From contig JACKAE010000005.1 in the NCBI GenBank assembly GCA_020635205.1, positions 258,361 to 322,360 on the forward strand: a stretch of DNA of 64,000 nucleotides. The letters are read 5' to 3'. This document shows, in pieces, positions 8,464 through 40,618 of the stretch. Under the pieces are notes generated by a model that was not told the origin of the DNA, did not search any database, and worked only from the letters and a program-made list of their open reading frames with translations. The stretch comes from Ignavibacteria bacterium. Lineage in GTDB: Bacteria; Bacteroidota; Ignavibacteria; OLB7. A program made the position numbers and the translations under genes. Every line of letters starts with the position of its first letter. Position 1 is the stretch's first letter.

Positions 8464-9792
8464 ATGATTGAGCTTGACCACAATGCCGAAATGTACAGTG
8501 CCAAACTGAAGGTTGTTGGCGTTGGTGGCGGCGGGGGGAACGCCATCAACAGTATGATCGAACGTGGCTTGGAGGGATGCGAATTTGTCGCGGTTAACAC
8601 CGACGCGCAGGCACTTTCAAAAAACCAGGCTCCACACAAGGTACAGATCGGGAAAGAATTAACGCGCGGCCTTGGTGCGGGGGCAAACCCCGAGATTGGC
8701 CGCGACGCGTCAGTAGAAGATCGGGAAGAACTGGCGCAGACCCTTACCGGCAGCGACATGGTTTTTGTGACTGCTGGAATGGGAGGTGGAACGGGAACCG
8801 GTAGCGCACCGGTTGTCGCAGAGGTTGCCCGCGAGCTTGGAGCACTCGTTGTCGGCATCGTCACACGTCCGTTTAATTGGGAAGGGAAACCGCGTCAGTC
8901 CAAAGCGGAGAGTGGTATCGAGGAATTGCGCAAGCAGGTTGATACGCTCATCGTTGTTCCCAATCAGCGTCTTCTCTCCATTATCGACAAGAACACAAGT
9001 CTGCAAGATGCCTTCCGCAAGGTTGACGACGTTCTCTACAATGCCACGAGTGGTATTGCCCGCATCATCACGGGGCAAGGCTATATCAACGTTGACTTTG
9101 CGGACGTGCGGACAATCATGCAGAGCATGGGTGAAGCCTTGATGGGAACGGGAATGGCTACTGGAGATGATCGGGCGGTAGAGGCGGCACAGAGTGCAAT
9201 CTCTTCTCCACTTCTTGAAGGAGTCTCGATTACCGGCTCGCAAGGTGTCCTTATCAACATCGCAGCTTCCAGCAGCTTGACGATGATGGAGATCGACGAA
9301 GCCGTAGACATCGTCTACAAGTCAGTCGGTCAGGATGCAAACATCATCTTCGGTGTGGTTATCGACGAAGCTCTCGAAGAGAAGATGATGGTGACAGTAA
9401 TCGCAACTGGTTTCAACAAGAAGGTGGCACAGAAGAGCGAGGCAGAGGAGAAGACCTCAGCCATGCCATTCAAGACTGCCGGTTTTGACTTGAAGCGGGA
9501 GGAGGTAACGCCGGAGGCAGAGCAGCAGAAAACTCCGGTGGTTCCAGCAGTTATACCTCCAACTCCCAAGGAGGAGCCAGACGAGTACGTCGCGAACAAT
9601 CCAGGAACCTACAAGAAGTACGACGTACCTGCCTACGAACGTCGCAATGTCAGCCACGAAGTATTGCGTGGAGGATTCGATATTCCGAAGGCAAACGACG
9701 GGAAAGAAGAAGAGGGGGAAAACCAAAATCAGGCAGAAGAGGCACGCCCACGCACGGAACGGGCAGCCTTCCTTCGGCGAATAATGGACTAA
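8464..9792 (+). CDS. ftsZ: cell division GTPase FtsZ
   Basis: 442 aa with tubulin signature GGGTGTG, VGVGGGGGNA, NTDAQAL, a long disordered linker and a conserved C-terminal peptide (DIPAYERR-like DVPAYERRN). Confidence 0.95.
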   Translation: MIELDHNAEMYSAKLKVVGVGGGGGNAINSMIERGLEGCEFVAVNTDAQALSKNQAPHKVQIGKELTRGLGAGANPEIGRDASVEDREELAQTLTGSDMVFVTAGMGGGTGTGSAPVVAEVARELGALVVGIVTRPFNWEGKPRQSKAESGIEELRKQVDTLIVVPNQRLLSIIDKNTSLQDAFRKVDDVLYNATSGIARIITGQGYINVDFADVRTIMQSMGEALMGTGMATGDDRAVEAAQSAISSPLLEGVSITGSQGVLINIAASSSLTMMEIDEAVDIVYKSVGQDANIIFGVVIDEALEEKMMVTVIATGFNKKVAQKSEAEEKTSAMPFKTAGFDLKREEVTPEAEQQKTPVVPAVIPPTPKEEPDEYVANNPGTYKKYDVPAYERRNVSHEVLRGGFDIPKANDGKEEEGENQNQAEEARPRTERAAFLRRIMD

Positions 9793-18943: not shown

Positions 18944-19455
18944 GATCGTTTTGAGGTTTTGTGGGTGATGTTGCGATGGGGGAAGATACGGTTTCCTGAA
19001 ATCTGAAAGCCTTTGCTATTTTCTTAATACATCCCAATTAGCCAGTGGGAGGCGGATTCATAGTTGTCCTTCGTAATTCCGTTGGAATCGGGATGGTAGA
19101 TGTAGGGTATCGGGTGACATAGGGAGAGTAGAGGGGCGAGGTCTGTTGAAGAGGAAATGGGACGACGTGGTTCCGTTCTGTTTGTGCATACCCGACGCGG
19201 TTGCGGAAGATCGAGATGTGGGGGCTCGACAGAGATAGAAGGGAACGCTCGGAGTGTCTGACAGCTTGCCGCAGGCTGTCAGACACTCCGAGAACATCAG
19301 AAATGCCTGTGATGTGTGAAGATCATCTTCCGAAGGGGATTCATAACTGCTATAATGGAAGCATAGTCTTGCAAGTTGCGGATACGAATGTCTGGGTATC
19401 AGGGATAACGGTTCTATATCCCTTGCCGCAACCACATTGTTAGATTGTCTGCTAC

Positions 19456-19989
19456 CTAAAGAACAAAAGTAATGCCTGCTCCTCCCGATGCTATCACTGA
19501 GTTCCCTCCAAGTTCTAGATGAACCGCAATGTTATCGTTGAAGTAGTAGCGTCCACCGATTATAACGCCGATTCCAAAGCCACCAGCTCCGCTTCCACTA
19601 TAGATCTCTCCTGAGTTGGAGGTAGTCTTTGTATTCCATATGTAGTATCCGGCGGTTGCTCCAGCATACAGATCATATTCAGAAGGAATCTTGAGAACTC
19701 TGTCGAAATAGTACTTTCCTGCTCCGCTAAATCCTATAATTGTATGCTGCCAGCTTGATCTATAGGATGCCGTGTTATAGGATTCACCAATAGATTGATA
19801 GCTACCCCCTATGCCGATGTTGAAATCTCTGCTAGCGTTGAATTCTACAGATCCATATATCGGTACACCCCATCCGGACATGCCAACCCCGACGTTGATT
19901 CTGGTGTGGGATAGCTGAGTGGCATCTTGAGCAAGTGTAGATGAACCTGTAATCATCACAGAGTAAATAAAAATTAGAATCTTTTTCAT
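19456..19989 (-). CDS. small outer-membrane beta-barrel protein (porin-family fold)
   Basis: 177 aa with signal peptide (MKKILIFIYSVMITGSSTLAQ), alternating Gly/aromatic strands and a C-terminal F/L. AT-rich relative to flanking DNA. Confidence 0.5.
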   Translation of the reverse strand: MKKILIFIYSVMITGSSTLAQDATQLSHTRINVGVGMSGWGVPIYGSVEFNASRDFNIGIGGSYQSIGESYNTASYRSSWQHTIIGFSGAGKYYFDRVLKIPSEYDLYAGATAGYYIWNTKTTSNSGEIYSGSGAGGFGIGVIIGGRYYFNDNIAVHLELGGNSVIASGGAGITFVL

Positions 19990-20086
19990 GTGTGTTGTGT
20001 GGTATTAATAAATATGTTGATCTTTAGCAAACGTGTACCTTTATCAAGTGACATGTTGATCTGCTTCTGCTGAGATATTCATGATT

Positions 20087-21157
20087 CTACAATTCTATGT
20101 AGAGTGGGATTTGAAGCGTTAAACTCTTTGGGAGTGAGACTATAACAGAGGTTATTAGCGAAGTCCCAGGAGCAAATATTCCGTTAGAGCGTGAAACTGT
20201 CCATCGAATGCGATAGAAGTATGCTCTCCCTCGTAAGATGTTTCCAAGACTTCCGTAAAATGAGATAAGCTGTTGGGCATCACTGGTTTGCATGAACGCA
20301 CCACTAGTTTGGTGAGCTATCATCCCAAGTAATGTCCTATCTGTCCCGTCTCCGAGTCCGACAGTGAAAATTTTCACTCCCAAGAGATTCGCATGGTCAA
20401 TAACATCGTCAGGATTCAAATGTCCTTCTGTATCCTGACCGTCAGTAAAAAGGATCAATGCCTTATTGGGGGTCGGTGCACTGTCGGCAAGAAAAGATGT
20501 CATTGAGTACGCAGAGAGATAAAGGGGCGTGCCTCCACCAATCAAGTTTTTGAGCGATTGTGCTGCTTCGTAGAAACTAGAACCATCACTTGTAAAACTT
20601 CCCCAGTATGTAACCGGTTCGTGCTTTAGCCTTCCCCCCTGCGAGAATGCCGATAGAAGCACATAGTCCGTACTATCAACTGCTCCCAAGAACGTTGTTG
20701 CCGCATCAATACGGGCATTCCGAGGGTCTGTGCTGAGTATGCTTCCGCTTTGATCCAGAAGCAAAACAGCTGAATATGGTTGCTCTTCCTGCATGTAGTT
20801 GGTTGAAAACTCAGACTGGGCAAATCTCAAAAAGACGGAGTCGCGTGAAGTGACTCCATTCAAAATGTCGTGGCTCCACTTGCTCAGGATGTTAAAGTCT
20901 TTGGATTTTCGGGATGTAATAGAGTGGCTGCTTCCATCAAACAGAACGATGTCGGCTTCGAACTCTACAGTTGAACCTGTGTTCTTTACAACTGTTGTCT
21001 TGAGTACTGCTCCACTCGGAGGGTTGGTTGTGTAATCTTCAGCAGGTGCAACAGGAGACTCTTTAGAACATGCTCCAAGAAAGAGTGAAAGAACAATGGT
21101 GAAGTGCAATGTGTAGTGTCTTTTCATAGTTGTCATTCTTGTTATAGTAATTATCAT
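20087..21157 (-). CDS. VWA-domain lipoprotein
   Basis: 356 aa with lipobox LGAC and a von Willebrand A MIDAS motif (LLLDQSGSI ... TPLY ... LFTDGQDT). Confidence 0.7.
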   Translation of the reverse strand: MIITITRMTTMKRHYTLHFTIVLSLFLGACSKESPVAPAEDYTTNPPSGAVLKTTVVKNTGSTVEFEADIVLFDGSSHSITSRKSKDFNILSKWSHDILNGVTSRDSVFLRFAQSEFSTNYMQEEQPYSAVLLLDQSGSILSTDPRNARIDAATTFLGAVDSTDYVLLSAFSQGGRLKHEPVTYWGSFTSDGSSFYEAAQSLKNLIGGGTPLYLSAYSMTSFLADSAPTPNKALILFTDGQDTEGHLNPDDVIDHANLLGVKIFTVGLGDGTDRTLLGMIAHQTSGAFMQTSDAQQLISFYGSLGNILRGRAYFYRIRWTVSRSNGIFAPGTSLITSVIVSLPKSLTLQIPLYIEL

Positions 21158-21497: not shown

Positions 21498-22722
21498 TTG
21501 GTGGAATGCCTTCGCTATAAGGCTGAGCGTGACAGCGAGCTCCTCGCTGCTCTACAACGTTGGGACGAACGACGATTTCTGAAAGAAACCTCCGATGAGG
21601 TTGGCTTTATCGATCACTTCTTTAAACGACTTTGGAACTATCGAGCAAATGGCGAAGTGGAAAACGGGCAGCCCTTCTCCTTGTGGCCGAAGTTCCCCGT
21701 GATCGGTGCGGGAGAACGTGGTGGAACCGGACAGGCCGACCTCGCTCTCGGATATTTTGGTAGTGTGCCCGGAGGAACAGAAATACCTCAGGTACTCTGC
21801 GAGTTGAAGGATATTCGCTCTGGCCTCGATGCTCCCCAACATTGATAAGCAGGAAGTCCCGAAGCTTCTGATACCACGTTTGATTCAACGATTGTTTTGC
21901 ACTATCGATAGTGAAGGGGAATTCTATCTCGACAATGTGGATGTTGGAGGAATACTGCCGACTTCCGTGAGCGAACTTGCATATCTGGCCGGTATCTTGA
22001 ATTCACCTGTTCCGAACTTTGTCTGGAGATATATTTCCAAGCCATTCCAAAACGACTACCGTTCAGCCAACAAACAATTCATCGCTCCACTCCCCATTCC
22101 CGAGGCAACACCAAAGCAGATAACTGAAGTGGGAGATCGGGCAAAAGAGTTGCAGCAGCTTCACACAAGGTACAACGAGCACCTTCAAGAAGCAGCCAAT
22201 GCAAGCCTGACAAGCGAAACGAGTCGTGGATTTGGGCCGACCTCAGAAGAGATGCAAATGCTTGGAAAGGGGAGGCTCCAGAAGAACTCACGGCACGAGA
22301 AAAAACAGCCTGGGCCAAGCAACATCGTGAAGCACTTCTGGAATCGCACTACGCCAAAATCGACCCACGGCTCCGTCCGGGGGCAACCCTCACTGCTGAA
22401 TTCTCTCGTGGAGAACTTCAACTCTACGCCGACGGCATACCGGTAATCACCGGAATCTACCTCGATGCCGAAGAGGGAAAGTGGGTCAATGGCAACAGAT
22501 TGCTCGCCGCACAAACGTGACAGAAAAGTTCACAGCCAAGAAACTTCTTTCCTCTCTCCTCGCACTACCGAAAACACCGCACTAAAAGCTCAAATCGAGC
22601 ACTTACACACCAACATCGAACAACTGAAAGCAGAAATCGAAGAGAAAGAGAATCTCCTGAACGAGGTAATCTACCAACTATATGACTTGGATGAGGAGGA
22701 GAGGAGTGTAGTAGATGTGTAG
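21498..22722 (+). pseudogene. remnant of a type IIG (MmeI/Eco57I-like) restriction-modification enzyme: N-terminal PD-(D/E)xK nuclease fragment + C-terminal TRD/tail, methyltransferase core deleted
   Basis: Three successive ORFs in different frames (21498..21845, 21829..22446, 22465..22722). The first has D...ELK (ADLALGYF...VLCELKD) like the MmeI-family N-terminal nuclease. The second has LAYLAGILNSPVPNFVWRYISKP (TaqI_C/Eco57I C-terminal specificity-domain motif). The third ends ...LNEVIYQLYDLDEEERSVVDV, the hallmark C-terminal tail of Eco57I/PglX-type enzymes. Total length is about 1.2 kb versus about 2.8-3 kb for intact enzymes. Confidence 0.5.
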
Positions 22723-23003
22723 TAGGTAATAGGGAGTCGAATGTGGGTACTATTGTGGCTATGAGAATCGCACTTCACAATGTACTTGGTTATTGAAGCC
22801 AGTAAGTCGAGTGTGAAGGCACTCAGGAACAAGAACGCAATTGTTGTCAAATAATTAACAAGAGAGTGCGAGCAGCAAGTTCTTCTTTCCACAATCTAAT
22901 TCCCCAAGACGATAGTTGTTCGGAGTTGTTCCCTTGCTGAAGAATACAAGTAGAATGTATGCACTCAAAATGCTAATAGAAATTAAAATTCATTAGAGGT
23001 GAC

Positions 23004-24140
23004 ATGCCTATTCGAGGAAATCCTTTGATCTATAAGGGACAAGGAAAAGATTGGGGGCACTTAGATGCGAGTGAAATGCCAATTGACGTAAGCTCAGTTA
23101 ATATTAGTGCGTTCCCTACTCGTGCATACTTTTGGCCTGAATCAAATGAATATGCATTGACTGTTACTGAGGTTGACACCGACAATCGTTTAGATATTCA
23201 AAATTTACGATCAAGTATCCCACTTGATCTACATGTCATTATCCCATCAGAATCCTTTAAGTGCAAGGCCTGTGTGGATATATTAGCAACACAGAAAATA
23301 TTCGACTCTTTAGGGTGGGGAATCAGGTTGAGGAATGTGAATTTTGAGTATAATCCTGGCTTATGCAATACCCTTTGCGATTCCAGTGATTCGCGTTTGA
23401 AAGAAATTTCAAGACCCAATAGTAATACACTTAATGTCTTCTACTGCTCTAATGTTAAGGTAAACATCCGTGAAAAAGGTGAAAAACAAAGCTCTGCATA
23501 CGGCAATGCAGGGCAAGGCTTTGTTATGTTGGGATTTGCATCTTCCCCTCACCTTATGGCCCATGAGCTTTTACACACAATGGGCATGAAAGATATCACT
23601 GATGAGAACCTCTCTCATTATTTTTTGTCGCAGTTCTCGTTAAGCCGAACAACTATTACTGGTGGGCAAATAGCCTGTTCTCATTATTATCGATATTCGA
23701 TTGTAGCTAATGGATCGTGTGAATGTGACTTCCCAGGTTCTATCGATCCTTGTTTGCCGTCAGCAGTATCTATGCCTGAACGCTCTCTAACTACGGGAAG
23801 GGCTGAATTCTTGAGTTCTACTGATCAACTTCTTACTCTCGATTGTTCATACACTCCAATAGATACTACCTTTGCGAGTTGGGTTGATGAAGAGCAGGCT
23901 GATCGTCTCATCGGAATTTTAAGTGAAGCTTCAGAACGTGAAATGATAGAAGAACAAGATTTTATAGAGTCTTGGGTTTCTTTTATTAGAGATGCATACA
24001 ACGATTTATGGGACAACCTTTTTCCAAGAACCAACGGGGAAAATTGCCGATTGTATATACAAGAATCACTATATCGTGTTTTATGTAGAGGGCTAATAAT
24101 CTTAGTGGAAAGTAATAGAGAATTCTTCACTTCTGAATAA
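23004..24140 (+). CDS. hypothetical protein with HExxH zinc-metallopeptidase-like motif, AT-rich (foreign)
   Basis: 378 aa with HELLH in the context GFASSPHLMAHELLHTMGM, and several Cys. GC is clearly lower than surrounding genes. No signal peptide seen. Confidence 0.5.
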   Translation: MPIRGNPLIYKGQGKDWGHLDASEMPIDVSSVNISAFPTRAYFWPESNEYALTVTEVDTDNRLDIQNLRSSIPLDLHVIIPSESFKCKACVDILATQKIFDSLGWGIRLRNVNFEYNPGLCNTLCDSSDSRLKEISRPNSNTLNVFYCSNVKVNIREKGEKQSSAYGNAGQGFVMLGFASSPHLMAHELLHTMGMKDITDENLSHYFLSQFSLSRTTITGGQIACSHYYRYSIVANGSCECDFPGSIDPCLPSAVSMPERSLTTGRAEFLSSTDQLLTLDCSYTPIDTTFASWVDEEQADRLIGILSEASEREMIEEQDFIESWVSFIRDAYNDLWDNLFPRTNGENCRLYIQESLYRVLCRGLIILVESNREFFTSE

Positions 24141-24152
24141 AACAATAGAAAT

Positions 24153-24593
24153 ATGCCTGAAGTTGTATTTGATGCGGGAACGCATAGTCTGAAACTTGAA
24201 ATTCCCAGTGATTTATGGGGGTATATCTATATCCGATTTATAGATGTCAATCGGGTAAGAAGTATCAAGTTGTATGCTGTCTCGTCAGTTGGAGTTCAAT
24301 CACTTATACACGAGTGGATATCATGTGACTATCCTTATTTGAGTGATACAACACACTTGGTTTATAAGGAATTGCCTCCGGCGTATGATGGCTCATATTA
24401 TCGTATTGTACCAGAATACCATCCAACGTCTATCTGTTCTGCCCCATCTCCTACTAATACGCTATATGCTGCCCCAAGCAATTCAGTAATATTCCCAGCA
24501 TCCGATTATTATCATTCGGCATGGGATTTTGATTTTGATGGCACAAAAACACAAATTATTATTGTTATGGAGAAAGATCGTGGTGGTGGCTAA
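24153..24593 (+). CDS. hypothetical protein (AT-rich cassette partner)
   Basis: 146 aa, 12 nt downstream of the previous gene. Same low GC. No recognisable motif. Confidence 0.4.
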   Translation: MPEVVFDAGTHSLKLEIPSDLWGYIYIRFIDVNRVRSIKLYAVSSVGVQSLIHEWISCDYPYLSDTTHLVYKELPPAYDGSYYRIVPEYHPTSICSAPSPTNTLYAAPSNSVIFPASDYYHSAWDFDFDGTKTQIIIVMEKDRGGG

Positions 24594-24632
24594 TATTAAT
24601 TTCTGCCAATAACTGGCAGAATTTCTTCATAG

Positions 24633-27600
24633 TCAGTTTGTATGATATAGGTCTAATTGGACTTTGTTTAGTCCATCAATAAATGCTTGAGCGCTCGGAT
24701 GGTCTTTGCCATGCAGATCGATGAATTGTGGCAGATACGTCTCATATATTTTCAAAGCCTCTTCTCGTCGAGAATTGATTCTGCGTAAGGCTGCTGCAAT
24801 GTTAAGCTGACTGGCTATAACACGTGAATGTCCATCAGGGAGATGTTTAATTCGTATTGTCAGCGCACGTTTGTAGGCTTTAAGAGATATTGCGGGTTCC
24901 AAATCGAGTAATAGACCTCCCAAGTTTGTCAACTTTACTGCTATGGAAAGGTGATCCGTCCCAAGCTGTATTTCATCAATTTCGATGGCTTTACGTAATA
25001 CTTGCTCGGCCTCTTCAACGAGGCCGAGCAAATCTAACGGCAGACTGAGATTGGTGAGAACCAGTCCTGTATTCGGATGGTTCTCACCATATATCCCTTC
25101 ATATATCTTTAAGACCTGACGAAAGATAGTTGTAGCCTCTTCATACTTCTCGGCTTGCGTCAACAACGTTGCCATATTATTCATGCACGTAGCAACGCCA
25201 ATATCTACCTTTGTCACAGCATTCCGTTTTAACACTTCCAGCTCATATCGGAAACACTCTTCGGCCTCACTGTATCGTATTTGCCCATAGTAAACCGCTC
25301 CAAGCATTCCCATCGTCGAAGCTGTGTCCCGATGTCCTTTTCCTTGTAGGTGCTCACGTAGTTTCAATGCTCGCTTCAATACTTTTTCTGCTTCTTTGAA
25401 CTCTTTGACTTGGTAGCAGAAAGAGCCAAATTCTTCTAAAGATTGGGCATAATCCAACGAGTTCTTTCCACACGCTTTTCCCGTGAGTTCGACACTTTGC
25501 TTTAACGCTTTTTCTGCGTCACGATAGTTTCCTGCTTCAGTGAGTGATGTTCCGAGAAGTCCAAAGAGTTGAGCCAACGTTCGCTTTTCATTCGGGAGCT
25601 TTTCAGTGATTGTTGTCGCTTGAGCTGCAAACTTTGTAGCGTTAGAGTATTCGCCTGCTACTCTTAAGAACTGCGCTGCTTCTGATAAATGCAGTGCTCG
25701 TTCTTTTCCTTTAAGGTTACGAGGTATCAGGGCTTTTGGGAGATCGCTTCCGCTCGGTAGACTTCCTGCTTCTTTTGCTGTGCGCCAGAATCCTAAGAGA
25801 GTGAAGCGATTCTCTTCAGTGTTAAGTATAGAGAAGAGATTGGTGAGGGCGGAGGAGAGCTCTTCCATTGCACTTACTGCACTCCACCCCGAGAGTTCTT
25901 CCATTGCTCGCCGGAGTGTCGGAGGCTGTGTTGAAAACCATTCTGCAACAGTTCGGTGTGTACTCCGTTTCCCCCTCGCCGACTTCAAATACCGTCTCTC
26001 AACGGCTCCCCTCAAATAGTCGTGGTGGAAGCGGTGAAGTCCTTCTTGTCGGATCATGTGGAAATCAAATGCTGCCAAGAGTTTGGAGAGTTGAGGTGTT
26101 GGTTTGCCAATAATTCCGTGAAGTTCTTCTAAGCTCAACCCATTCCGCGATGCCCAAATCAGACTCATCACTTGGCGTGTCAGCCCTTTCCCAAAGTCAA
26201 CTTCCATCCGCTCGAGAATGCGTTGGTAGAGTTCTTCTAAACTCTCGGCGGCTAAGTAGTGGTTGATTCTATCGTCCAGCTTCTCATGCTGACCGAAGAT
26301 GCGCAGTTCTTCGAGACTTGTTCGGAGATAGAGGGGGTTTGTAGTGTTGCTATTGGAGGCAATGCGTGCAGTTTGCTTCGGTTCAAGCTGTTTGCCGAAG
26401 CGATCAAAGTAAGCGCGGACAGCCTGCTGTCTGGCTCTCGTTCCTAACAAGTGAACGTTTACAGTTGGCCACTTTCGGGCGGTACAGGCCTCCAGCAGAG
26501 AACCGGGGAGCGTGGAGAGAATAATTCTCACATTTGGGTGGAAGTCGAGCGGGAGCCAGTCCAGGTGATCTGTCCCAGCAAGTTGGTTGAGTGCGTCGAT
26601 GAGAATCACAAGGCGATCTTCCCCAAGGCGTGCAAGCCAAGCTGGAAATTCGTTGACGATGTCGGCTGGCTCAAGTGGTGGAGTCTCTTCGATGTCGTAC
26701 CGTTCCTTAATCTCCACCATCACTCGCCTAAGCAATCCGAACTGGTCGCTACTTCCGGGGGTTGCGCCGATATAGTGCTCAATGACGAATGTGTTGGGGT
26801 TTGCCTCGCAATAGCGTTTGCTCCACCAAGAGAGGAGAGAACTTTTTCCCGATCCCGATTCACCTGTAACGACAATCGGATAAACCCGCGAGTTCTCCCC
26901 CTTCTTTGATGAAGTTGTTGCTGTGGCAACGTATTCATCTAATTTCCGCAGAGTCGGCTCGTGCTCGATATATGCTCGCCTCCTTGATTCCGCAAAGGCG
27001 TTGTGTCCCCTGCGCTCCGCTTCAAGCCACGAATCGTGACTTCCACGTTCGGGAGTAATCGAGTCGAGGATTGATAGTAAATCTTTGCGTACCAGCTCCC
27101 CAAGCTGTTTCGGAGTTCGATAGCCTTCGCGATAGGGAAAATGGCTTTCTTGAACGCGCTCTCGAAATTGTTGTAGTCTTCTTCGTTCGCGTTCGTTCTC
27201 TTCAGAACCATTTGCTTTCTGTCCACCTGACTTCCGTTTGAAGTAGAAGAAGACGTGATCTCGCAATTCTGGATCGTTCATTGGAGCTACCAGACTCTCG
27301 AGTTCCGTCAGACTTCGTTGTTGTTGGATTGCCTCGGAGAGCCAGGGATATCGATCGTCGACATCTGTGATTGCCTTCAGGTCACGTTCATCCGGGCACC
27401 ATCCATAGCGGTCACCGATCAGCGAGATAATGTAGGGTTTGTGCCTCTTGATCTCATCCAAACAAAGTTCAACGATCTTATGTCTGCGCGCCTGCCGTTC
27501 CGTAATTCCCCAACGCAGGTCAACTTCAGTGAAGACTACGCCACGCTCGCGACAGATGCGGCGAATCTCTGGAAACACTTTCTTCACCAAATACTCCCGC

Positions 27601-27665
27601 TCCTCACCCATATCGGTAAATGTGCTGGAGAGGAAGATGCGCAAGTCAGTAGCGGAAGAGTTCAT
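24633..27665 (-). CDS. DUF4062-NACHT/STAND P-loop NTPase-TPR protein (NLR-like, candidate antiviral STAND ATPase)
   Basis: 1010 aa. The N-terminus LRIFLSSTFTDMGEEREYLVKKVFPEI matches DUF4062 (IFISSTFxDMxxERD). Walker A is VVTGESGSGKSSLLS and Walker B-like is LVILIDALNQ. The C-terminal ~400 aa is a run of TPR_10/12-type repeats (e.g. ...NMATLLTQAEKYEEATTIFRQVLKIYEG...). Confidence 0.8.
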   Translation of the reverse strand: MNSSATDLRIFLSSTFTDMGEEREYLVKKVFPEIRRICRERGVVFTEVDLRWGITERQARRHKIVELCLDEIKRHKPYIISLIGDRYGWCPDERDLKAITDVDDRYPWLSEAIQQQRSLTELESLVAPMNDPELRDHVFFYFKRKSGGQKANGSEENERERRRLQQFRERVQESHFPYREGYRTPKQLGELVRKDLLSILDSITPERGSHDSWLEAERRGHNAFAESRRRAYIEHEPTLRKLDEYVATATTSSKKGENSRVYPIVVTGESGSGKSSLLSWWSKRYCEANPNTFVIEHYIGATPGSSDQFGLLRRVMVEIKERYDIEETPPLEPADIVNEFPAWLARLGEDRLVILIDALNQLAGTDHLDWLPLDFHPNVRIILSTLPGSLLEACTARKWPTVNVHLLGTRARQQAVRAYFDRFGKQLEPKQTARIASNSNTTNPLYLRTSLEELRIFGQHEKLDDRINHYLAAESLEELYQRILERMEVDFGKGLTRQVMSLIWASRNGLSLEELHGIIGKPTPQLSKLLAAFDFHMIRQEGLHRFHHDYLRGAVERRYLKSARGKRSTHRTVAEWFSTQPPTLRRAMEELSGWSAVSAMEELSSALTNLFSILNTEENRFTLLGFWRTAKEAGSLPSGSDLPKALIPRNLKGKERALHLSEAAQFLRVAGEYSNATKFAAQATTITEKLPNEKRTLAQLFGLLGTSLTEAGNYRDAEKALKQSVELTGKACGKNSLDYAQSLEEFGSFCYQVKEFKEAEKVLKRALKLREHLQGKGHRDTASTMGMLGAVYYGQIRYSEAEECFRYELEVLKRNAVTKVDIGVATCMNNMATLLTQAEKYEEATTIFRQVLKIYEGIYGENHPNTGLVLTNLSLPLDLLGLVEEAEQVLRKAIEIDEIQLGTDHLSIAVKLTNLGGLLLDLEPAISLKAYKRALTIRIKHLPDGHSRVIASQLNIAAALRRINSRREEALKIYETYLPQFIDLHGKDHPSAQAFIDGLNKVQLDLYHTN

Positions 27666-27722
27666 AGAGTTGAGAGTTGGTAGAGTTTATAGAGTATGTG
27701 AGTGTATAAGATCTATGACTGA
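27656..27722 (+). repeat. heptamer-based dispersed repeat copy between STAND gene start and TPR-LuxR gene end
   Basis: TTCATAGAGTTGAGAGTTGGTAGAGTTTATAGAGTATGTGAGTGTATAAG. Confidence 0.7.
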
Positions 27723-27755
27723 AGGCTCATTTCTCATAGCTGAAAGCTCTCCCCC

Positions 27756-29486
27756 CTACAACCCCTGCAAAAATGTTCCTAACTCTACTTTCGAGTCGAT
27801 TTCAATCTTGCCTCGGATTCTGTAGCGTGTGGTTTCTACTGTTCGGGTGGTGACGTGGAGAAGTTCAGCAATCTCACCGGTGGAAAGTCCCGTGACAGCC
27901 AGCGCACAAAACTGCAAGTCTTTCTGTGTTAGGAGTGGCCAGCGGCGGGCGATGCGGTGGAGTAGTTCGGGGTTCGTTCGCTCGAATTGTTGTTGGAAAC
28001 TTTGCCAGTTCATGTTGTTAGAGAAGCTTCTCTTAATCTCCTGTATCATCTCTTCAGCCAACGGTTTTACGTCGTCTCGCGCTTCGGTTTTTATCTTCTC
28101 AAGTTTTTCTACCAGCGTCTCGATGAACTTCTGTTTCTCTATAAGTTGGAGCGAGAGGGCGTTCAGTTCTGCTTTGTCTGTCCGTATCTCTGCCTCCAAT
28201 CGCTCTGCCTTCAGTTGTAGTATCTCTCGTTCGTTCTCCGAACGCTCAAGGTCAAACCGTGTCTGGGTTTCGGCAGCTATCTTCCGCTGCTCCCGCATAT
28301 CTATTTCACGCTGCAATTCAATGTAGCGGCGCAGGTGATGAATACCCTTCGTCGAATCTCCAATCTGCTCTAATGTCTCAGCCAACAGTTCGTGGCAGCG
28401 GCAGAGAATGTTTGTCTCTTCAATCTCTTCTGCTAATAGCAATGTCTGCTCGAGTACGTAGCGTGCGTCGTTCAACTTGCCTGCTCGTGCGTAGAGTGAG
28501 CCGAGGCCGACCAGGGCAATTGCCTGGCCTCGTTGGTCGTTAAGATCTTCGAAAATGTCGAGTGCCTTCACTCGATAGTCGGCGGCACTTTGCAAGTCGC
28601 CACTCCCTTCGGAAATATTCGAGAGGTTTAAGAGGGTGGTGGCAATTCCTTTCTGGTCGTGTAGTGCGTCGTAGATTGCTAAGGCTCGGAGTCCACAGTG
28701 GAGTGCACTCTCAACCTGACCTATCGCTGTGTAGATGTTCGTCAGGTTCACCAACGTCATCACTTCCAGTGCGTGAGAACGTGAGTCGTGGAATTGGGTC
28801 AGCGCCGACTGCAAGTGTTCGAGTGCTCTCTTCGTCTCTCCAAGCTCTGCGTATGCAATTCCAATATCGCTCAGGGCGCGTCCCCTCTCTTCAGAGGGAG
28901 CACTCTTTTCGGCAATGCGGAGTAAGTCCAAGAAGAGGGGGAGTGCGCGGGCATGATCTCCGATCGTCGTGTAGAACTCCCCCAACTCCTTCAGAGCACT
29001 CTTCTGTTCCTCACGATTCTCCTCTTTTTTGGAGAGGTCAATTGCTTCCTTATAGAACTCTGTCGTCTCCGCAAAGCGTTTTAGTTCTCTGGAGGCACGT
29101 GCAGATTTTAGGTTAAGCCGAATGCGCTCTTCAGTTGCATCGACATCTTTAAAGATGCGGAGTGCTTTCCCCCACGACTTTAGTGCCTGCTTCCAATTAT
29201 TTCCCCGGGCGTGACAATCTCCCTCAAGTTCAAATCCTTCACCGATTGAAACTGAGCGATTTAAATCTTCAGCAAGAGTAATCATCTCTTGCAGCCAGTT
29301 GAAATGTTCCTCCGTAGGGGGAACGTGATGTTCTGAGAGAGTGCGCCCCAGCGACTGGAGTATCGACAGGCGGTCAGGAAGACTCGTCGTTGTGTCGAGA
29401 CGTTTGGCCAGAGAACGAAGCGTTGTCGAGTAAGTACTCATCAACCACACCTGATAAGTAAGTAGTACTGCGGGATATTCAAGCAA
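27756..29486 (-). CDS. TPR-repeat / coiled-coil / LuxR(GerE)-type HTH transcriptional regulator
   Basis: 576 aa with N-terminal TPR repeats, a central coiled coil (ERLEAEIRTDKAELNALSLQLIEKQKFIETLVEKLE) and a C-terminal LuxR HTH (LTQKDLQFCALAVTGLSTGEIAELLHVTTRTVETTRYRIRGKI). Confidence 0.8.
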   Translation of the reverse strand: MLEYPAVLLTYQVWLMSTYSTTLRSLAKRLDTTTSLPDRLSILQSLGRTLSEHHVPPTEEHFNWLQEMITLAEDLNRSVSIGEGFELEGDCHARGNNWKQALKSWGKALRIFKDVDATEERIRLNLKSARASRELKRFAETTEFYKEAIDLSKKEENREEQKSALKELGEFYTTIGDHARALPLFLDLLRIAEKSAPSEERGRALSDIGIAYAELGETKRALEHLQSALTQFHDSRSHALEVMTLVNLTNIYTAIGQVESALHCGLRALAIYDALHDQKGIATTLLNLSNISEGSGDLQSAADYRVKALDIFEDLNDQRGQAIALVGLGSLYARAGKLNDARYVLEQTLLLAEEIEETNILCRCHELLAETLEQIGDSTKGIHHLRRYIELQREIDMREQRKIAAETQTRFDLERSENEREILQLKAERLEAEIRTDKAELNALSLQLIEKQKFIETLVEKLEKIKTEARDDVKPLAEEMIQEIKRSFSNNMNWQSFQQQFERTNPELLHRIARRWPLLTQKDLQFCALAVTGLSTGEIAELLHVTTRTVETTRYRIRGKIEIDSKVELGTFLQGL

Positions 29487-36334: not shown

Positions 36335-36427
36335 GGGGGAGATGTAACGTTCAAAGTGAAAATTCGAGAGTAAATAGCCCTCTCTCCGATCCTTTTTTTA
36401 AATTTTGTCCGCCGTGGCGGATTCATT

Positions 36428-37897
36428 TTGAATTCTCTCCCCCTGTTCTCTCCACGTTCCGTAAATTTCTCACCTTATATGGTTAGAAAATCAGAAACGA
36501 TCGATCCATTTGTAGAATCGGTTCGTCGCTTTATGCGCTTACATGAAATGTCTCACGGAGGTGAGTCAATTCTGGTTGCGGTGAGCGGGGGAATCGACTC
36601 TGTGGTGATGCTTGATGTTATCGCCCGCCTCTCTGTGCCCCTGCGGTTTTCATTCGGAGTTGCTCACTTCGATCATGGATTGCGTGAGTCTTCCACTGTT
36701 GATGCAGACTTTGTCCGCGAACTTGCTACACGCTATCGCGTGAAGGCGTTTGTGGCTTCCGGAGACGTTCGGCGCATTGCCGATGAAGAAGGGCGCTCTG
36801 TTGAGGAGACTGCTCGCCGTGAACGCTATGCCTTCTTAGAACGGATTGCTCGTCGCCATCGCTACGATACCGTGATGACAGGGCATACCGCCGACGATAA
36901 TGCAGAGACTCTCATGATGAATCTCTTGCGTGGAAGTGGCGTAACCGGCCTCGCTGGTATTCCACCAACCCGTCGACTTGCTGGAGGGGGAACGGTGATT
37001 GTTGCTCGTCCACTATTGGGGCAGAGTAGGCATCAGATTGAGGAGTATGCAAGTGCAAGCGAGTTGAAGTGGCGTGAAGATGAATCAAATCAGTCGGGAG
37101 AATTTACCCGAAACCGGGTTCGGCACGAGTTAATGGCGCTTCTCCGGACGTTCAACCCGAATGTTGTGGAGACGCTGAATACGACAGCCGGACTGATGCG
37201 TGATTTCGACCGCTATCTTTCAAGTGCGGTAGAGGCTGCCTTGCGGGGAACAACGGTTGAGGAACCTGTTCACGGAGAACGGATATTGCTCGACGTTCGG
37301 CAACTGCGCCACTTGCAGCCAGCGCTTCGGGGTGAGGTTGTGCAGCGGGCAATGTGTGAAACATTCGATATTCCACCAATCTCTCACGTAGCTGTGGAGC
37401 GTGGGCTTAACCTAATCTGGAAGGAGACCGGAGCGCGAGCCAGTCTCGGCGGACGGTTCGAAGCACTGCGTGACCGCGATACGATTGTGCTGCTGAAAAA
37501 TCCTCCGGTGGTTCGGGATGTTGATCGGCTGTTTGATATAGGTGATTCGGTAGAGATTGCCGGTCTAACACTGAAGACATCATTCTTCGATAATGGCAAA
37601 CCGAAGTTTGTCTCGAACGGCAAGGTGGAATATGTCGATGCGGATCGATTGCCCGAGAAATTGACGATCCGCTCGTGGCGTGAGGGAGACCGATTCCATC
37701 CGCTCGGCATGAAAGGGGAAAAGAAGTTGAGTGATTTTCTGATCGACCAGAAAATCCCACTCGACAGGAAGCGGCAAGTGATGGTAATCACCGATGGAGA
37801 TAAAATTATCTGGGTCTGTGGTATGCGAATCGACGAACGGTTCAAGGTAAACCCGAAGACACAACGAATTCTGAAGATGGAATTGCAGACAATATGA
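36428..37897 (+). CDS. tilS: tRNA(Ile)-lysidine synthetase TilS
   Basis: PP-loop SGGxDS (ILVAVSGGIDSVVMLD). Conserved position upstream of hpt-ftsH. Exact start uncertain; alternatives are at 36479 or 36542. Confidence 0.8.
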   Translation: MNSLPLFSPRSVNFSPYMVRKSETIDPFVESVRRFMRLHEMSHGGESILVAVSGGIDSVVMLDVIARLSVPLRFSFGVAHFDHGLRESSTVDADFVRELATRYRVKAFVASGDVRRIADEEGRSVEETARRERYAFLERIARRHRYDTVMTGHTADDNAETLMMNLLRGSGVTGLAGIPPTRRLAGGGTVIVARPLLGQSRHQIEEYASASELKWREDESNQSGEFTRNRVRHELMALLRTFNPNVVETLNTTAGLMRDFDRYLSSAVEAALRGTTVEEPVHGERILLDVRQLRHLQPALRGEVVQRAMCETFDIPPISHVAVERGLNLIWKETGARASLGGRFEALRDRDTIVLLKNPPVVRDVDRLFDIGDSVEIAGLTLKTSFFDNGKPKFVSNGKVEYVDADRLPEKLTIRSWREGDRFHPLGMKGEKKLSDFLIDQKIPLDRKRQVMVITDGDKIIWVCGMRIDERFKVNPKTQRILKMELQTI

Positions 37898-38520: not shown

Positions 38521-38611
38521 ATGCAGTGCGAAGGGGAGAGGGAGATTATCAATCTCCTTAAATCCACGATCAAAAGTAAAGTGATACTAACATACATTAC
38601 GATCAAGTTTC

Positions 38612-40618
38612 ATGAGTAACGAAATCAATCCGGGGGGGCCTGATCGTCGTCCCGGGAAGCGATCCGGTGATGAGGAACCGGGTGTTAGCCGTATGATGCG
38701 AACAGTGGTGGCCTGGCTGGTAATTATCGCAGGTTTTCTGCTGATCCTGATGCTCGTTGGCCAACGTTCTTCCCAGACTGTGCAGGTCAGCTACGACGAA
38801 TTCCAACGTCTGCTAAATGCCGAAGTCATCAAGGATGCAAAACTTATTAAGTCCCAAGATAACAGTTGGGAGTTCCAAGGGAAACTGACGGAAGCCATGG
38901 ATGTAAAGGTTGCCGGAAGAGGGGGGGAGACGCAGAAGACAGAATATATCTTCACTGAACTTGCTCCTGTTTCAGACGAGACGTTGGCGGCTTGGGATCC
39001 GAAGATTAAGGGAGAAGTGATAATTGACGAGGGGGACGGTTTTATGTGGGGCTTCCTTCTCACATTCTTTCCTTGGCTAATTCTGATTGCGGTGATGATC
39101 TTCTTCTTCCGCCGAATGCAGGGGGGGGCTACTCGGGGCATCTTTAGTTTCGGTAAATCCCGTGCAAAAACCTTGAGCGAAACCTCGCCCCGCATTACGT
39201 TCGCTGATGTGGCCGGAGCCGAAGAGGCGAAGGAAGAGTTGCAAGAGGTTGTAGAGTTCCTCCGCGATCCAGGACGCTTCCAGCGGTTGGGGGCAAAGAT
39301 TCCACGTGGTGTGCTGTTGCTCGGTAGGCCCGGTACAGGCAAAACCCTTCTGGCCAGAGCTGTAGCAGGAGAGGCTGGCGTCCAGTTTATGTCAATTTCG
39401 GGTGCAGACTTTGTGGAGATGTTCGTTGGTGTTGGGGCAAGTCGTGTGCGAGACCTCTTTGAGCAGGCAAAGAAAGTTGCCCCAGCAATTGTCTTTATCG
39501 ACGAGATTGATGCCGTCGGTCGGCAACGAGGAGCCGGACTTGGAGGGGGACACGACGAGCGGGAGCAGACGCTGAACGCGCTTCTTGTGGAGATGGATGG
39601 CTTCGAGCCGAACACGGGCGTTATTATTATCGCCGCAACCAACCGTCCGGACGTACTTGATCCAGCACTTCTCAGGCCGGGACGCTTCGACCGTCAGGTG
39701 ATTGTGGATCTTCCCGATCGCCGTGGTCGCGAGGGTATCTTGAAAGTTCACACACGCAAACTTCCGCTGGCCGAGAATGTTGATCTGGAATCCTTAGCGA
39801 AGGCAACGCCTGGCTTCAGCGGAGCAGACATTGCCAACCTCTGCAACGAGGCGGCTATCTTCGCTGCACGTCGCAACGGTGAGCGGGTGACGATGTACGA
39901 CTTCGAAATGGCGAAAGACAAACTGATGTTAGGGCTTGAACGCCGTACAATGGTAATGAGCGAAGAAGAAAAGAAGATGACTGCCTACCACGAGTGTGGG
40001 CACGTTATTGTCGGGAAGTTTGTCCCACACAGCGATCCTCTCCACAAGGTGACAATTATTCCGCGTGGTCGTGCTCTCGGGGTTACGCACTTCTTGCCAC
40101 AGGATGATAAGCACTCACGTTCCAGAGAGTGGTTCGAGGCAAAAATTGCGATGGCTCTCGGTGGACGTGCAGCGGAACTTCTTGTCTTTGGGAACTATAC
40201 AAGTGGCGCGCAGGGAGATATTAAGATGGTAACGCAGATGGCGCGCCAGATGGTTTGCGAACTCGGAATGTCCGAGAAGCTCGGTCCGGTAAACTACTCG
40301 TCGGGAGATGGGGAAGTATTTCTCGGACGTGATTTTGCCGTTCACAAAGATATTAGTGAGGCAACGGCTGAAATTATCGACAAAGAAGTGAGGCAGATTA
40401 TTGATGAGGGAATGGAACTTGCTCAGGAAGTTCTGAAACAACACGAAGAGTTGCTCCACACGATGTCGGCATTGCTGATAGAGCGAGAGACGCTCGACGC
40501 TGAAGAGATTGAGATGGTGATTAAGGGGGAGGAACTGCCGCCAATGGAAGTGAAGCAGATGTTGCACGCACGCCTTGCTTCCGGTGAGAGTGTTTCGGTT
40601 GAATCGAAGAGTTCATAG
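38612..40618 (+). CDS. ftsH: ATP-dependent zinc metalloprotease FtsH
   Basis: 668 aa with two TM helices, AAA Walker A ([18 protein letters not shown]), SRH and HEcGH zinc motif ([10 protein letters not shown]). Confidence 0.95.

Follow-up and report, generated by a model that had tools for sequence, protein, structure and literature searches.

A low-GC gene pair encoding a diverged metzincin-like peptidase and a small partner protein is a candidate variable cassette of an NLR-like defence locus in Ignavibacteria

What are two small, unusually AT-rich genes doing next to the gene of an NLR-like ATPase, and do they belong to it or merely lie beside it? The question is raised by a 64,000-nt stretch of DNA from an Ignavibacteria bacterium (GenBank assembly GCA_020635205.1, contig JACKAE010000005.1, positions 258,361 to 322,360 of the forward strand; hereafter the window). 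In it two open reading frames (ORFs), ORF A (378 amino acids, aa) and ORF B (146 aa), are separated by 12 nt and run toward a convergent gene for a STAND ATPase, with a spacer of 39 nt between ORF B and the STAND gene. The pair and its place (coordinates in Table 1) were given in a preliminary description of the window and were verified here; the same description proposed that the pair might be a toxin/immunity or abortive-infection module, and that ORF A could be a protease-type effector or an anti-defence factor. We find that a type of locus made up of a TPR-LuxR regulator, the STAND gene, a convergent small partner gene and, usually, a peptidase gene preceding the partner occurs in Kapaibacteria/Ignavibacteria-type bacteria. 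Judged by homology, ORF A belongs, though strongly diverged, to the metzincin-like peptidases found at that position, and ORF B is the partner. We therefore take the pair to be, in all probability, an immune accessory module that has not been described before, not a stray toxin pair.

The relatives on which this answer depends are not visible to direct sequence searches. Neither ORF A nor ORF B, also when searched as fragments and at E values up to 10, had a match in Pfam, NCBIfam, PADLOC, PHROGs or the sequences of the PDB, and tblastn with both proteins found none in phage and plasmid collections. In large protein searches, covering up to 15 billion proteins overall, a word-indexed comparison with 5.8 billion clusters recovered nothing but ORF A and ORF B themselves, from a metagenome-assembled genome (MAG) labelled Ignavibacteriae. 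Exhaustive comparison with 1.84 billion representatives by phmmer recovered, besides ORF A, two tandem-repeat proteins (P0003 and P0004; E 1.8e-11 and 2.1e-6), which we rejected as artefacts: in each, one match of ~30 bits is summed over 8-13 repeats, and the matches do not span the zinc motif of ORF A. Because these searches gave only the proteins themselves, relatives could be reached only through gene context. In RecQ-anchored synteny over species-representative genomes, the best of the matches listed was 55% identical and none of them had common neighbours, and pattern scans of viral and metagenome contigs, built from the partner and peptidase alignments, gave no usable pattern or only unspecific matches. 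The loci were found through homologues of the STAND protein, one of them 86% identical (in a Candidatus Kapaibacterium MAG) and the others 60-39% identical; twelve orthologous loci, the window included, were traced to contigs. An exact look-up showed each relative of the two proteins to be a singleton cluster.

The gene order of these loci is conserved. In all twelve, a small convergent gene lies directly downstream of the STAND gene, encoding 130-157 aa (207 aa in locus L092). In seven, a gene of 300-475 aa occupies the position upstream of the small gene, at gaps of 2-76 nt, and six of the seven encoded proteins are mutually homologous and carry metzincin signatures (HEIGHxLGLxH/D, NIM and R..GQ). 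The seventh (in L097) matches Pfam Peptidase_C1 and has apparently intact Cys, His and Asn motifs of the papain type, and here too the partner is retained. In four further loci (L092, L099, L100 and L181) there is no peptidase gene, and the partner still adjoins the STAND gene in every one. Thus the link to the NLR-like ATPase proves stronger than the preliminary description had proposed. Its idea of looking for the pair in other genomes finds peptidase and partner together in seven loci, the window included, but the partner without a peptidase in four. Synteny, which it had associated with core genes, is indeed conserved; what is conserved, however, is the neighbourhood of a defence locus. 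One of these partners is absent from the gene calls of the source: in L093 the gene lies at 9069-9634 on the minus strand and encodes 146 aa ending in IIIVLEDDGGGGDGDD, and the same gap is present in L094, which shows how easily the B family is overlooked.

A scan with the STAND alignment provided 80 more distant DUF4062-STAND-TPR loci (29-42% identity). In these 80 loci we found no gene of the A or B family, no tail motif and no full TPR-LuxR gene, with positive controls scoring 349 and 132 bits. It follows that a single STAND orthologue group has the module, and that the partner is no arbitrary small ORF of the sort that might stand beside any STAND gene.

To which family does ORF A belong? 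Its HELLH (aa 187-191) is part of HELLHTMGMKD, which fits the extended motif HExxHxxGxxD. Plain HExxH occurs in 4 of the 408 ORF segments of the window, whereas the extended form, HExxHxxGxx(H/D), occurs in ORF A only; plain HExxH is present also in two other long ORFs, at 36374-37894 and 38591-40615. A hidden Markov model (HMM) built from the peptidase relatives only, run against the same 408 segments, ranked ORF A first (E 1.3e-8; next best 1.9). None of the residues that are invariant in the family alignment is missing from ORF A: it has H, E, H and G as well as R and GQ, the last three being R245, G251 and Q252 in the numbering of the first aligned sequence. The third-ligand position is Asp in ORF A, as in L093 and L096, and the other relatives have HExxHxxGxxH. 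Compared with the PDB, the profile of the peptidase family matched 84 chains at E up to 10, almost all of them metzincins (adamalysins, serralysins, ADAM/ADAMTS, archaemetzincin, matrix metalloproteinases and fragilysin), the best at E 0.006 with about 125 positions aligned. Against Pfam and NCBIfam, the relatives gave sub-threshold matches only, all to metzincin families. The zincin-like character that the preliminary description read from HELLH is thus supported, not by ORF A alone but through relatives with canonical metzincin signatures and the HMM derived from them. We call ORF A metzincin-like and do not claim strict metzincin membership because a Leu stands at its Met-turn position.

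The Asp-containing motif recalls the snapalysin type, metzincins with Asp as third ligand (HExxHxxGxxD); ORF A, L093 and L096 have this same motif. They differ from snapalysins in that the family described here has no significant similarity to any curated metzincin family, in the Leu of ORF A at the Met-turn, and in being presumably cytoplasmic, without a signal peptide. The last point extends a remark of the preliminary description, which saw no secretion signal on either protein: by eye, the N-termini of ORF A and ORF B do not resemble signal peptides, and on inspection neither does that of any peptidase or partner across the loci, which are therefore presumably cytoplasmic. ORF A also contains 12 cysteines, including CKAC (aa 87-90, 23262-23273) and CNTLC (aa 121-125, 23364-23378) upstream of the catalytic motif. 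These suggest a structural metal site in a cytoplasmic protein; they are not obviously conserved in the relatives.

ORF B is identified in the same way. An HMM from the partner relatives only placed ORF B first among the 408 segments (E 4e-5; next best 1.1), and ORF B aligns end to end with the partners of L095 and L093 at 26-39% identity, the three having in common MP, RF, W.SC, RI.PE[YF] and IIIV.E...GGG. Over the whole set the partners are only 13-39% identical, yet they share the terminal strand and tail: a hydrophobic strand, then E(N/D)x, then glycines, giving the consensus hhIVhE(N/D)xGGG. The partner of the window ends exactly at GGG. A GG or GGG tail is present in 7/7 loci with a peptidase gene, versus 0/4 loci without one (Table 1); this tracking of peptidase presence by the tail is suggestive. 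An AlphaFold2 model of ORF B from a 7-sequence alignment (mean predicted local distance difference test score, pLDDT, 61.5; predicted template-modelling score 0.57) consists of eight strands and no helix, with IIIVME as the last strand and GGG as a free tail. When this model was compared by Foldseek with the PDB and BFVD, no match was significant; jelly-roll-type sandwiches scored slightly better than the rest.

Two readings of the partner were considered and rejected. Mimicry of a phage protein found no significant fold match in BFVD or the PDB. A ubiquitin-like beta-grasp, as the GGG tail might suggest, disagrees with the all-beta fold without a helix predicted by the model, itself of modest confidence, and no locus contains E1, E2 or JAB genes. 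Searches of Pfam, NCBIfam, PADLOC and PHROGs assigned ORF B to no recognisable enzymatic or pore-forming family.

Both frames have properties expected of genuine genes. The GC content of ORF A and of ORF B is 0.395, far below (z -6.3) the 0.512 that 42 other window ORFs have on average (sd 0.019), and at third codon positions (GC3) it is 0.325 and 0.293, respectively, versus 0.529 in the other ORFs (z -5.0 and -5.8). The strong AT-richness noted in the preliminary description is thus confirmed by calculation. Both genes show the gradient GC1>GC2>GC3 expected of true coding sequence of AT-rich origin. ORF A is not a chance open frame, because at its composition 0/2000 shuffles reach its length (analytic P 6e-12). 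The length of ORF B was reached in 18/2000 shuffles, a weaker case when taken alone; ORF B has homologues, however. Nine contigs bearing ORF A, from several independent samples, are essentially 100% identical to the window. The reading of both genes as functionless, decaying sequence with a chance HExxH is hardly credible in view of these results: ORF A is the most divergent member of its family, lacks the Met of the Met-turn and has no database matches of its own, but it is a 378-codon open frame in 39% GC DNA (P 6e-12) with a coding GC gradient, retains all family-invariant residues, and is identical in sequence across contigs from several independent samples.

How did low-GC DNA come to lie at this site? 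The DNA of the window was compared with that of L090, the locus of the 86%-identical STAND protein: identity is 89.7% over 22509-22725 (L090 6596-6819) and 85.8% over 24985-29343, and no similarity is detectable across 22726-24984. Inside this block GC is 0.35-0.43, versus 0.47-0.56 outside. The low-GC tract, which the preliminary description placed at 22.7-24.6 kb, is real, but it does not end at 24640: it reaches into the 3' part of the STAND gene, as far as about 24985. The STAND protein changes likewise, with about 92% identity to L090 as far as residue ~860 and 20-44% thereafter. The last 120 residues of the window STAND are 52% identical to L091 versus 40% to L090, whereas its core is 65% identical to L091 and 91% to L090; because the tail is nearest to one locus and the core nearest to another, recombination is indicated.

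A second, independent replacement of this kind separates L093 from L098. Their DNA is 97% identical over the 6.9 kb that hold TPR-LuxR and codons 1-625 of STAND, and 92% identical on the far side of the cassette. The roughly 3.2 kb between, with the TPR region of STAND, the partner and the peptidase, show no similarity, and there GC drops from about 0.63 to 0.43-0.50. Wherever a locus has a peptidase gene, the GC content of the cassette is below that of its surroundings. The low GC of the cassette is accounted for by replacement of the block at a conserved site, so that of the recent horizontal acquisition proposed earlier the exchange itself stands, as allelic block replacement (22726-24984), but not the insertion of foreign DNA into a naive site. 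A search for mobile-element boundaries around the cassette found no tRNA, integrase or meaningful flanking repeats.

The TPR-LuxR gene lies outside the replaced block in both cases, and it stays 86-97% identical while partner and peptidase are replaced. Three loci contain in addition a 143-aa gene with a helix-turn-helix (HTH) of the sigma70_r4/GerE type, divergent from the peptidase gene (L093 11494-11925, L097 10737-11168, L098 10304-10735); it has no counterpart in the window except for weak similarity to the HTH of TPR-LuxR.

In the STAND protein itself Pfam recognises DUF4062 (44.6 bits; cutoff 24.7), NACHT, AAA_16 and TPR_12, and the layout DUF4062-NACHT-TPR is present in 12/12 loci. Its Walker A motif (aa 268-275) and the sequence SLTELE (aa 118-123, with E121 and E123) are invariant in 11 aligned orthologues; by analogy, we infer that the catalytic Glu of DUF4062 lies in SLxELE. 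The PADLOC Avs models do not recognise the window STAND. DUF4062 has been reported as a TIR-like NADase defence effector in three 2026 preprints (including bioRxiv 10.64898/2026.09.04.749371 and 10.64898/2026.05.01.722283), and in one reported case an Avs2-type DUF4062-STAND-TPR protein senses the phage terminase.

Table 1. Positions of the features in the window (numbered from its first letter), followed by the zinc motifs and partner tails of the orthologous loci.
Feature	Position	Strand	Remarks
Replaced low-GC block	22726-24984	.	Promoter region, ORF A, ORF B, terminator, last ~117 STAND codons
ORF A	23004-24140	+	378 aa; diverged metzincin-like, presumably cytoplasmic peptidase; HMM of relatives E 1.3e-8
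Zinc-binding motif HELLHTMGMKD of ORF A	23562-23594	+	aa 187-197; H, E, H, G in invariant family columns; zinc motif LMAHELLHTMGMKD, then YFL, then R...GQ
Met-turn-equivalent segment HYFLSQFS, then conserved R...GQ	23616-23669	+	Leu where relatives have Met
ORF B	24153-24593	+	146 aa; all-beta partner protein (predicted); HMM of relatives E 4e-5
Terminal strand and Gly tail of ORF B	24555-24590	+	IIIVMEKDRGGG-COOH; I135, E140, G145 invariant
Bidirectional terminator-like hairpin	24601-24621	.	Between convergent ORF B and STAND genes
STAND sensor	24633-27665	-	1010 aa; DUF4062 (TIR-like NADase), NACHT/AAA, TPR
Divergent C-terminal TPR end of STAND	24633-24984	-	aa ~894-1010; part of replaced block
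TPR-LuxR (GerE HTH) regulator	27756-29486	-	Constant module member, outside replaced block
Coiled-coil tail ORF of decayed Type IIG restriction-modification gene	22465-22722	+	Conserved left flank; ~90% conserved in L090
L090			Zinc motif LLAHEIGHCLGLDH, then NAM, then R...GQ; partner tail ILIVMENNGGGS
L091			Zinc motif LLCHEMGHCFGLDH, then NIM, then R...GQ; partner tail ILIIMEQSGGGG
L093			Zinc motif LLAHEIGHTLGLTD, then NIM, then R...GQ; partner tail IIIVLEDDGGGGDGDD
L095			Partner tail IIIVLEDNGGGGGCQI
L096			Zinc motif LLAHEIGHVLGLSD, then NIM, then R...GQ; partner tail IIVVIENHNGGQSGPV
L097			Partner tail ITVVIENNTGGGLGS
L098			Zinc motif LLCHELGHMHNLAH, then NVM, then R...GQ; partner tail IIIELVNDGGG
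L092			No peptidase gene; partner tail ENDGDRD + 45-aa extension
L099			No peptidase gene; partner tail VEDSIWGET
L100			No peptidase gene; partner tail VQDEGFLGEI
L181			No peptidase gene; partner tail LEDEGFIQG

How, then, might a peptidase and a small protein serve such a sensor? We favour the reading that the pair is part of a variable accessory cassette of a lineage-specific NLR-like defence locus, and that it works as follows: the peptidase would act on, or dock to, the C-terminal tail of the partner; the partner, intact or processed, would be read by the terminal TPR repeats of the STAND protein; and this reading would gate STAND oligomerisation and depletion of NAD+ by DUF4062. The exchanged block would then be a co-evolving unit of ligand, processing enzyme and receptor tip, diversifying under phage pressure. 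Reading of the partner tail by the TPRs is plausible because TPR domains often bind C-terminal peptides. To the statement as a whole we assign a probability of about 0.5. The part that follows directly from the comparisons (homology of both ORFs, conserved gene order, restriction to one orthologue group, block replacement) is very likely correct, and the mechanism, in which tail processing or docking, TPR reading and NADase gating are proposed, is tentative. We therefore hold the identity of the genes with high confidence and the way they work with low to moderate confidence.

A more specific form of this mechanism makes the partner a self-encoded bait: its conserved last strand and Gly tail would occupy the terminal TPRs and hold the NADase-STAND off, proteolysis by the cognate peptidase or by a phage factor would release the sensor, and bait, enzyme and receptor tip would be exchanged as one cassette. 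We regard this as doubtful; if true, it would make the locus a bacterial guard-decoy NLR whose bait, enzyme and receptor tip are swapped between strains as one cassette.

Several observations weigh against the favoured reading. ORF A has YFL at the N[IVA]M column, so that Leu replaces the Met of the Met-turn; it has no match of its own in Pfam, NCBIfam or the PDB even at E 10, and its single-sequence AlphaFold2 model is unusable (pLDDT 33.6). The confidence of the ORF B model is only modest, and the model has no fold match. In the tail comparison, the 0/4 loci that lack a peptidase gene count as only two independent lineages. The cassette is convergent with the STAND gene and is therefore not co-transcribed with it, and the STAND protein carries its own effector domain and has no obvious need of a peptidase. 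Divergence of the TPR end could be ordinary sensor diversification, with the cassette hitch-hiking. Finally, we rejected a common donor for the STAND tail and the partner: their nearest relatives disagree, in a small sample.

Among the alternatives, a peptidase-inhibitor pair fares best. Serralysin-type metzincins are encoded beside small beta-barrel inhibitors, and the tail of ORF B might likewise block the active site of a dangerous cytoplasmic peptidase, the pair being a downstream or parallel effector. A small beta-rich protein encoded directly after the peptidase, at gaps of 2-76 nt, with a conserved tail that co-varies with peptidase presence, agrees with this proposal and with the serralysin-inhibitor operons. 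Those operons differ, however, from the loci described here, in which the partner also accompanies a cysteine peptidase and also occurs without any peptidase: one partner family would have to serve metzincin-like and papain-like C1 peptidases, which have different catalytic mechanisms, and would remain in four loci where there is no peptidase gene to inhibit. We consider an inhibitor unlikely.

A protease with a pro-effector is quite unlikely. According to this proposal ORF B is a latent toxin that ORF A cleaves into its active form after the STAND protein has sensed infection. Separately encoded pro-effectors with a partner protease have a precedent in Avs-type systems, and some partners have short extensions past GGG that could be removed. 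The partner of the window, however, stops exactly at GGG, leaving nothing to cut; the partner belongs to no recognisable enzymatic or pore-forming family and in four loci has no peptidase gene beside it, and the STAND protein already has an NADase effector.

Two further proposals would dispense with the STAND protein, and we regard both as very improbable. In the first, the one put forward in the preliminary description, the genes form a toxin-antitoxin or abortive-infection pair of their own, and only their place in a defence island brings them next to the STAND gene. A tight, low-GC two-gene operon near restriction-modification (RM) debris and an NLR-like gene agrees with such a pair, but the partner is tied to the STAND gene (12/12 loci, four of them without a peptidase) and not to the peptidase, the replaced block takes in the C-terminus of the STAND protein, and the two proteins match no PADLOC or PHROG family. 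Because the partner persists beside the STAND gene in the four peptidase-less loci, a toxin with its immunity protein is not supported, and the partner also pairs with two unrelated classes of peptidase; for the anti-defence factor that had been suggested we found no evidence.

The second is signalling of the RRNPP kind, in which a peptide from the C-terminus of ORF B would be sensed by TPR-LuxR for control of transcription without the STAND protein. Peptides from the C-termini of small precursors encoded nearby can serve as ligands of TPR regulators, and a regulator with TPR and HTH is a constant neighbour here. TPR-LuxR nevertheless remains 86-97% identical across the replacements, without co-variation with partner and peptidase, and ORF B lacks a signal peptide and, at 146 aa, is predicted to fold.

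It is instructive to compare the module with systems already described. No description of it was found in the literature library searched. The closest analogue is provided by the predicted peptide-processing systems of Kaur, Burroughs, Iyer and Aravind (2020; PMC7159879), which comprise a zincin-like metallopeptidase, a small protein that diverges rapidly except in its C-terminal peptide, a STAND-TPR protein with TIR and sometimes a transcription factor, the processed peptide being proposed as a toxin or signal. Our module appears to follow the same logic: a zincin-like peptidase adjoins a small diverging protein with a conserved C-terminal stretch, and both are obligatorily coupled to a STAND ATPase that begins with a TIR-type effector and ends in TPRs, and to a transcription factor. 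The module nevertheless does not qualify as a member. The tail hhIVhE(N/D)xGGG is none of the four types of that study (FxSxx, RxD, acidic, FtsH-associated); peptidase and partner had no matches among the NCBIfam FxSxx-system models, and the STAND protein matched FxSxx_TPR at 101 bits versus a cutoff of 300, in its TPR part only. The module also differs in having no radical SAM and no vWA-MoxR or FtsH core, in a partner of ~146 aa that is predicted to be folded and all-beta, in a peptidase that in some loci is papain-like or absent, in its convergent orientation, and in its phylum.

Two other kinds of system share single aspects of the module. Protease/pro-nuclease pairs are portable accessories recurrently acquired by Avs, Hachiman and other sensors (Tuck et al. 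2025; PMC12799240), and the pair described here is likewise a portable two-gene accessory, a protease and a separate partner, attached to a STAND sensor. In those pairs a trypsin-like protease is fused to the sensor and a metallo-beta-lactamase-type nuclease is its partner; here, instead, the peptidase is a stand-alone metzincin-like or C1 protein and the partner has no enzymatic family. The DUF4062 NADases (NIR/Swarozyc, including PsAvs2) have the same DUF4062-STAND-TPR layout as the protein studied here, which has the invariant SLxELE glutamates and an intact Walker A, but they have been described as single-gene systems or phosphatase pairs, none with a conserved small partner or peptidase. 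We regard the module as a variant of a computationally predicted kind of system, on a newly characterised NADase-STAND class.

The surroundings of the cassette carry traces of other events. Upstream of it PADLOC reports Type IIG fragments: at 21498-22722 are three frame-broken pieces of a Type IIG RM gene, corresponding to profile positions 2-37 and 879-996 and to the coiled-coil tail ending in VVDV. In L092 a 185-aa version of the coiled-coil tail ORF adjoins the partner gene. Since this tail ORF is kept in L090 and L092, the RM gene is an old, decayed neighbour of the module. Between RecQ and the RM debris, at 19456-21157, lie a 177-aa ORF without a family match and a VWA-domain lipoprotein gene, both of low GC (z -3.9 and -3.4), which may be a separate acquired segment. 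Just upstream of RecQ, at 19248-19292, is a 22-nt inverted repeat, 95% complementary, with 1 nt between its arms. Locus L091 (contig_18, 115 kb) retains the ScpA ... TPR-LuxR-STAND ... RecQ frame of the window, and its ScpA-RecQ interval additionally holds a DDE transposase, a second NACHT-TPR gene (885 aa) and an esterase. These extra genes mark the interval as a variable island.

By sequence alone ORF A and ORF B looked like orphans, even in a set of 15 billion proteins; their families emerged only from positional comparison, which is a practical lesson. The wider interest lies in the sensor. Bacterial NLR-like (Avs/STAND) sensors have mostly been described as single proteins that bind a phage protein directly; in the orthologue group described here, a small partner is always present and a swappable peptidase usually so, and they are replaced together with the last TPR repeats. 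If the partner is a ligand or bait of the TPR end, the locus would offer a tractable bacterial case of guard-type sensing, which is indirect, or of an NADase NLR gated by proteolysis, and an experimental handle on peptide-processing systems that have so far only been predicted computationally.

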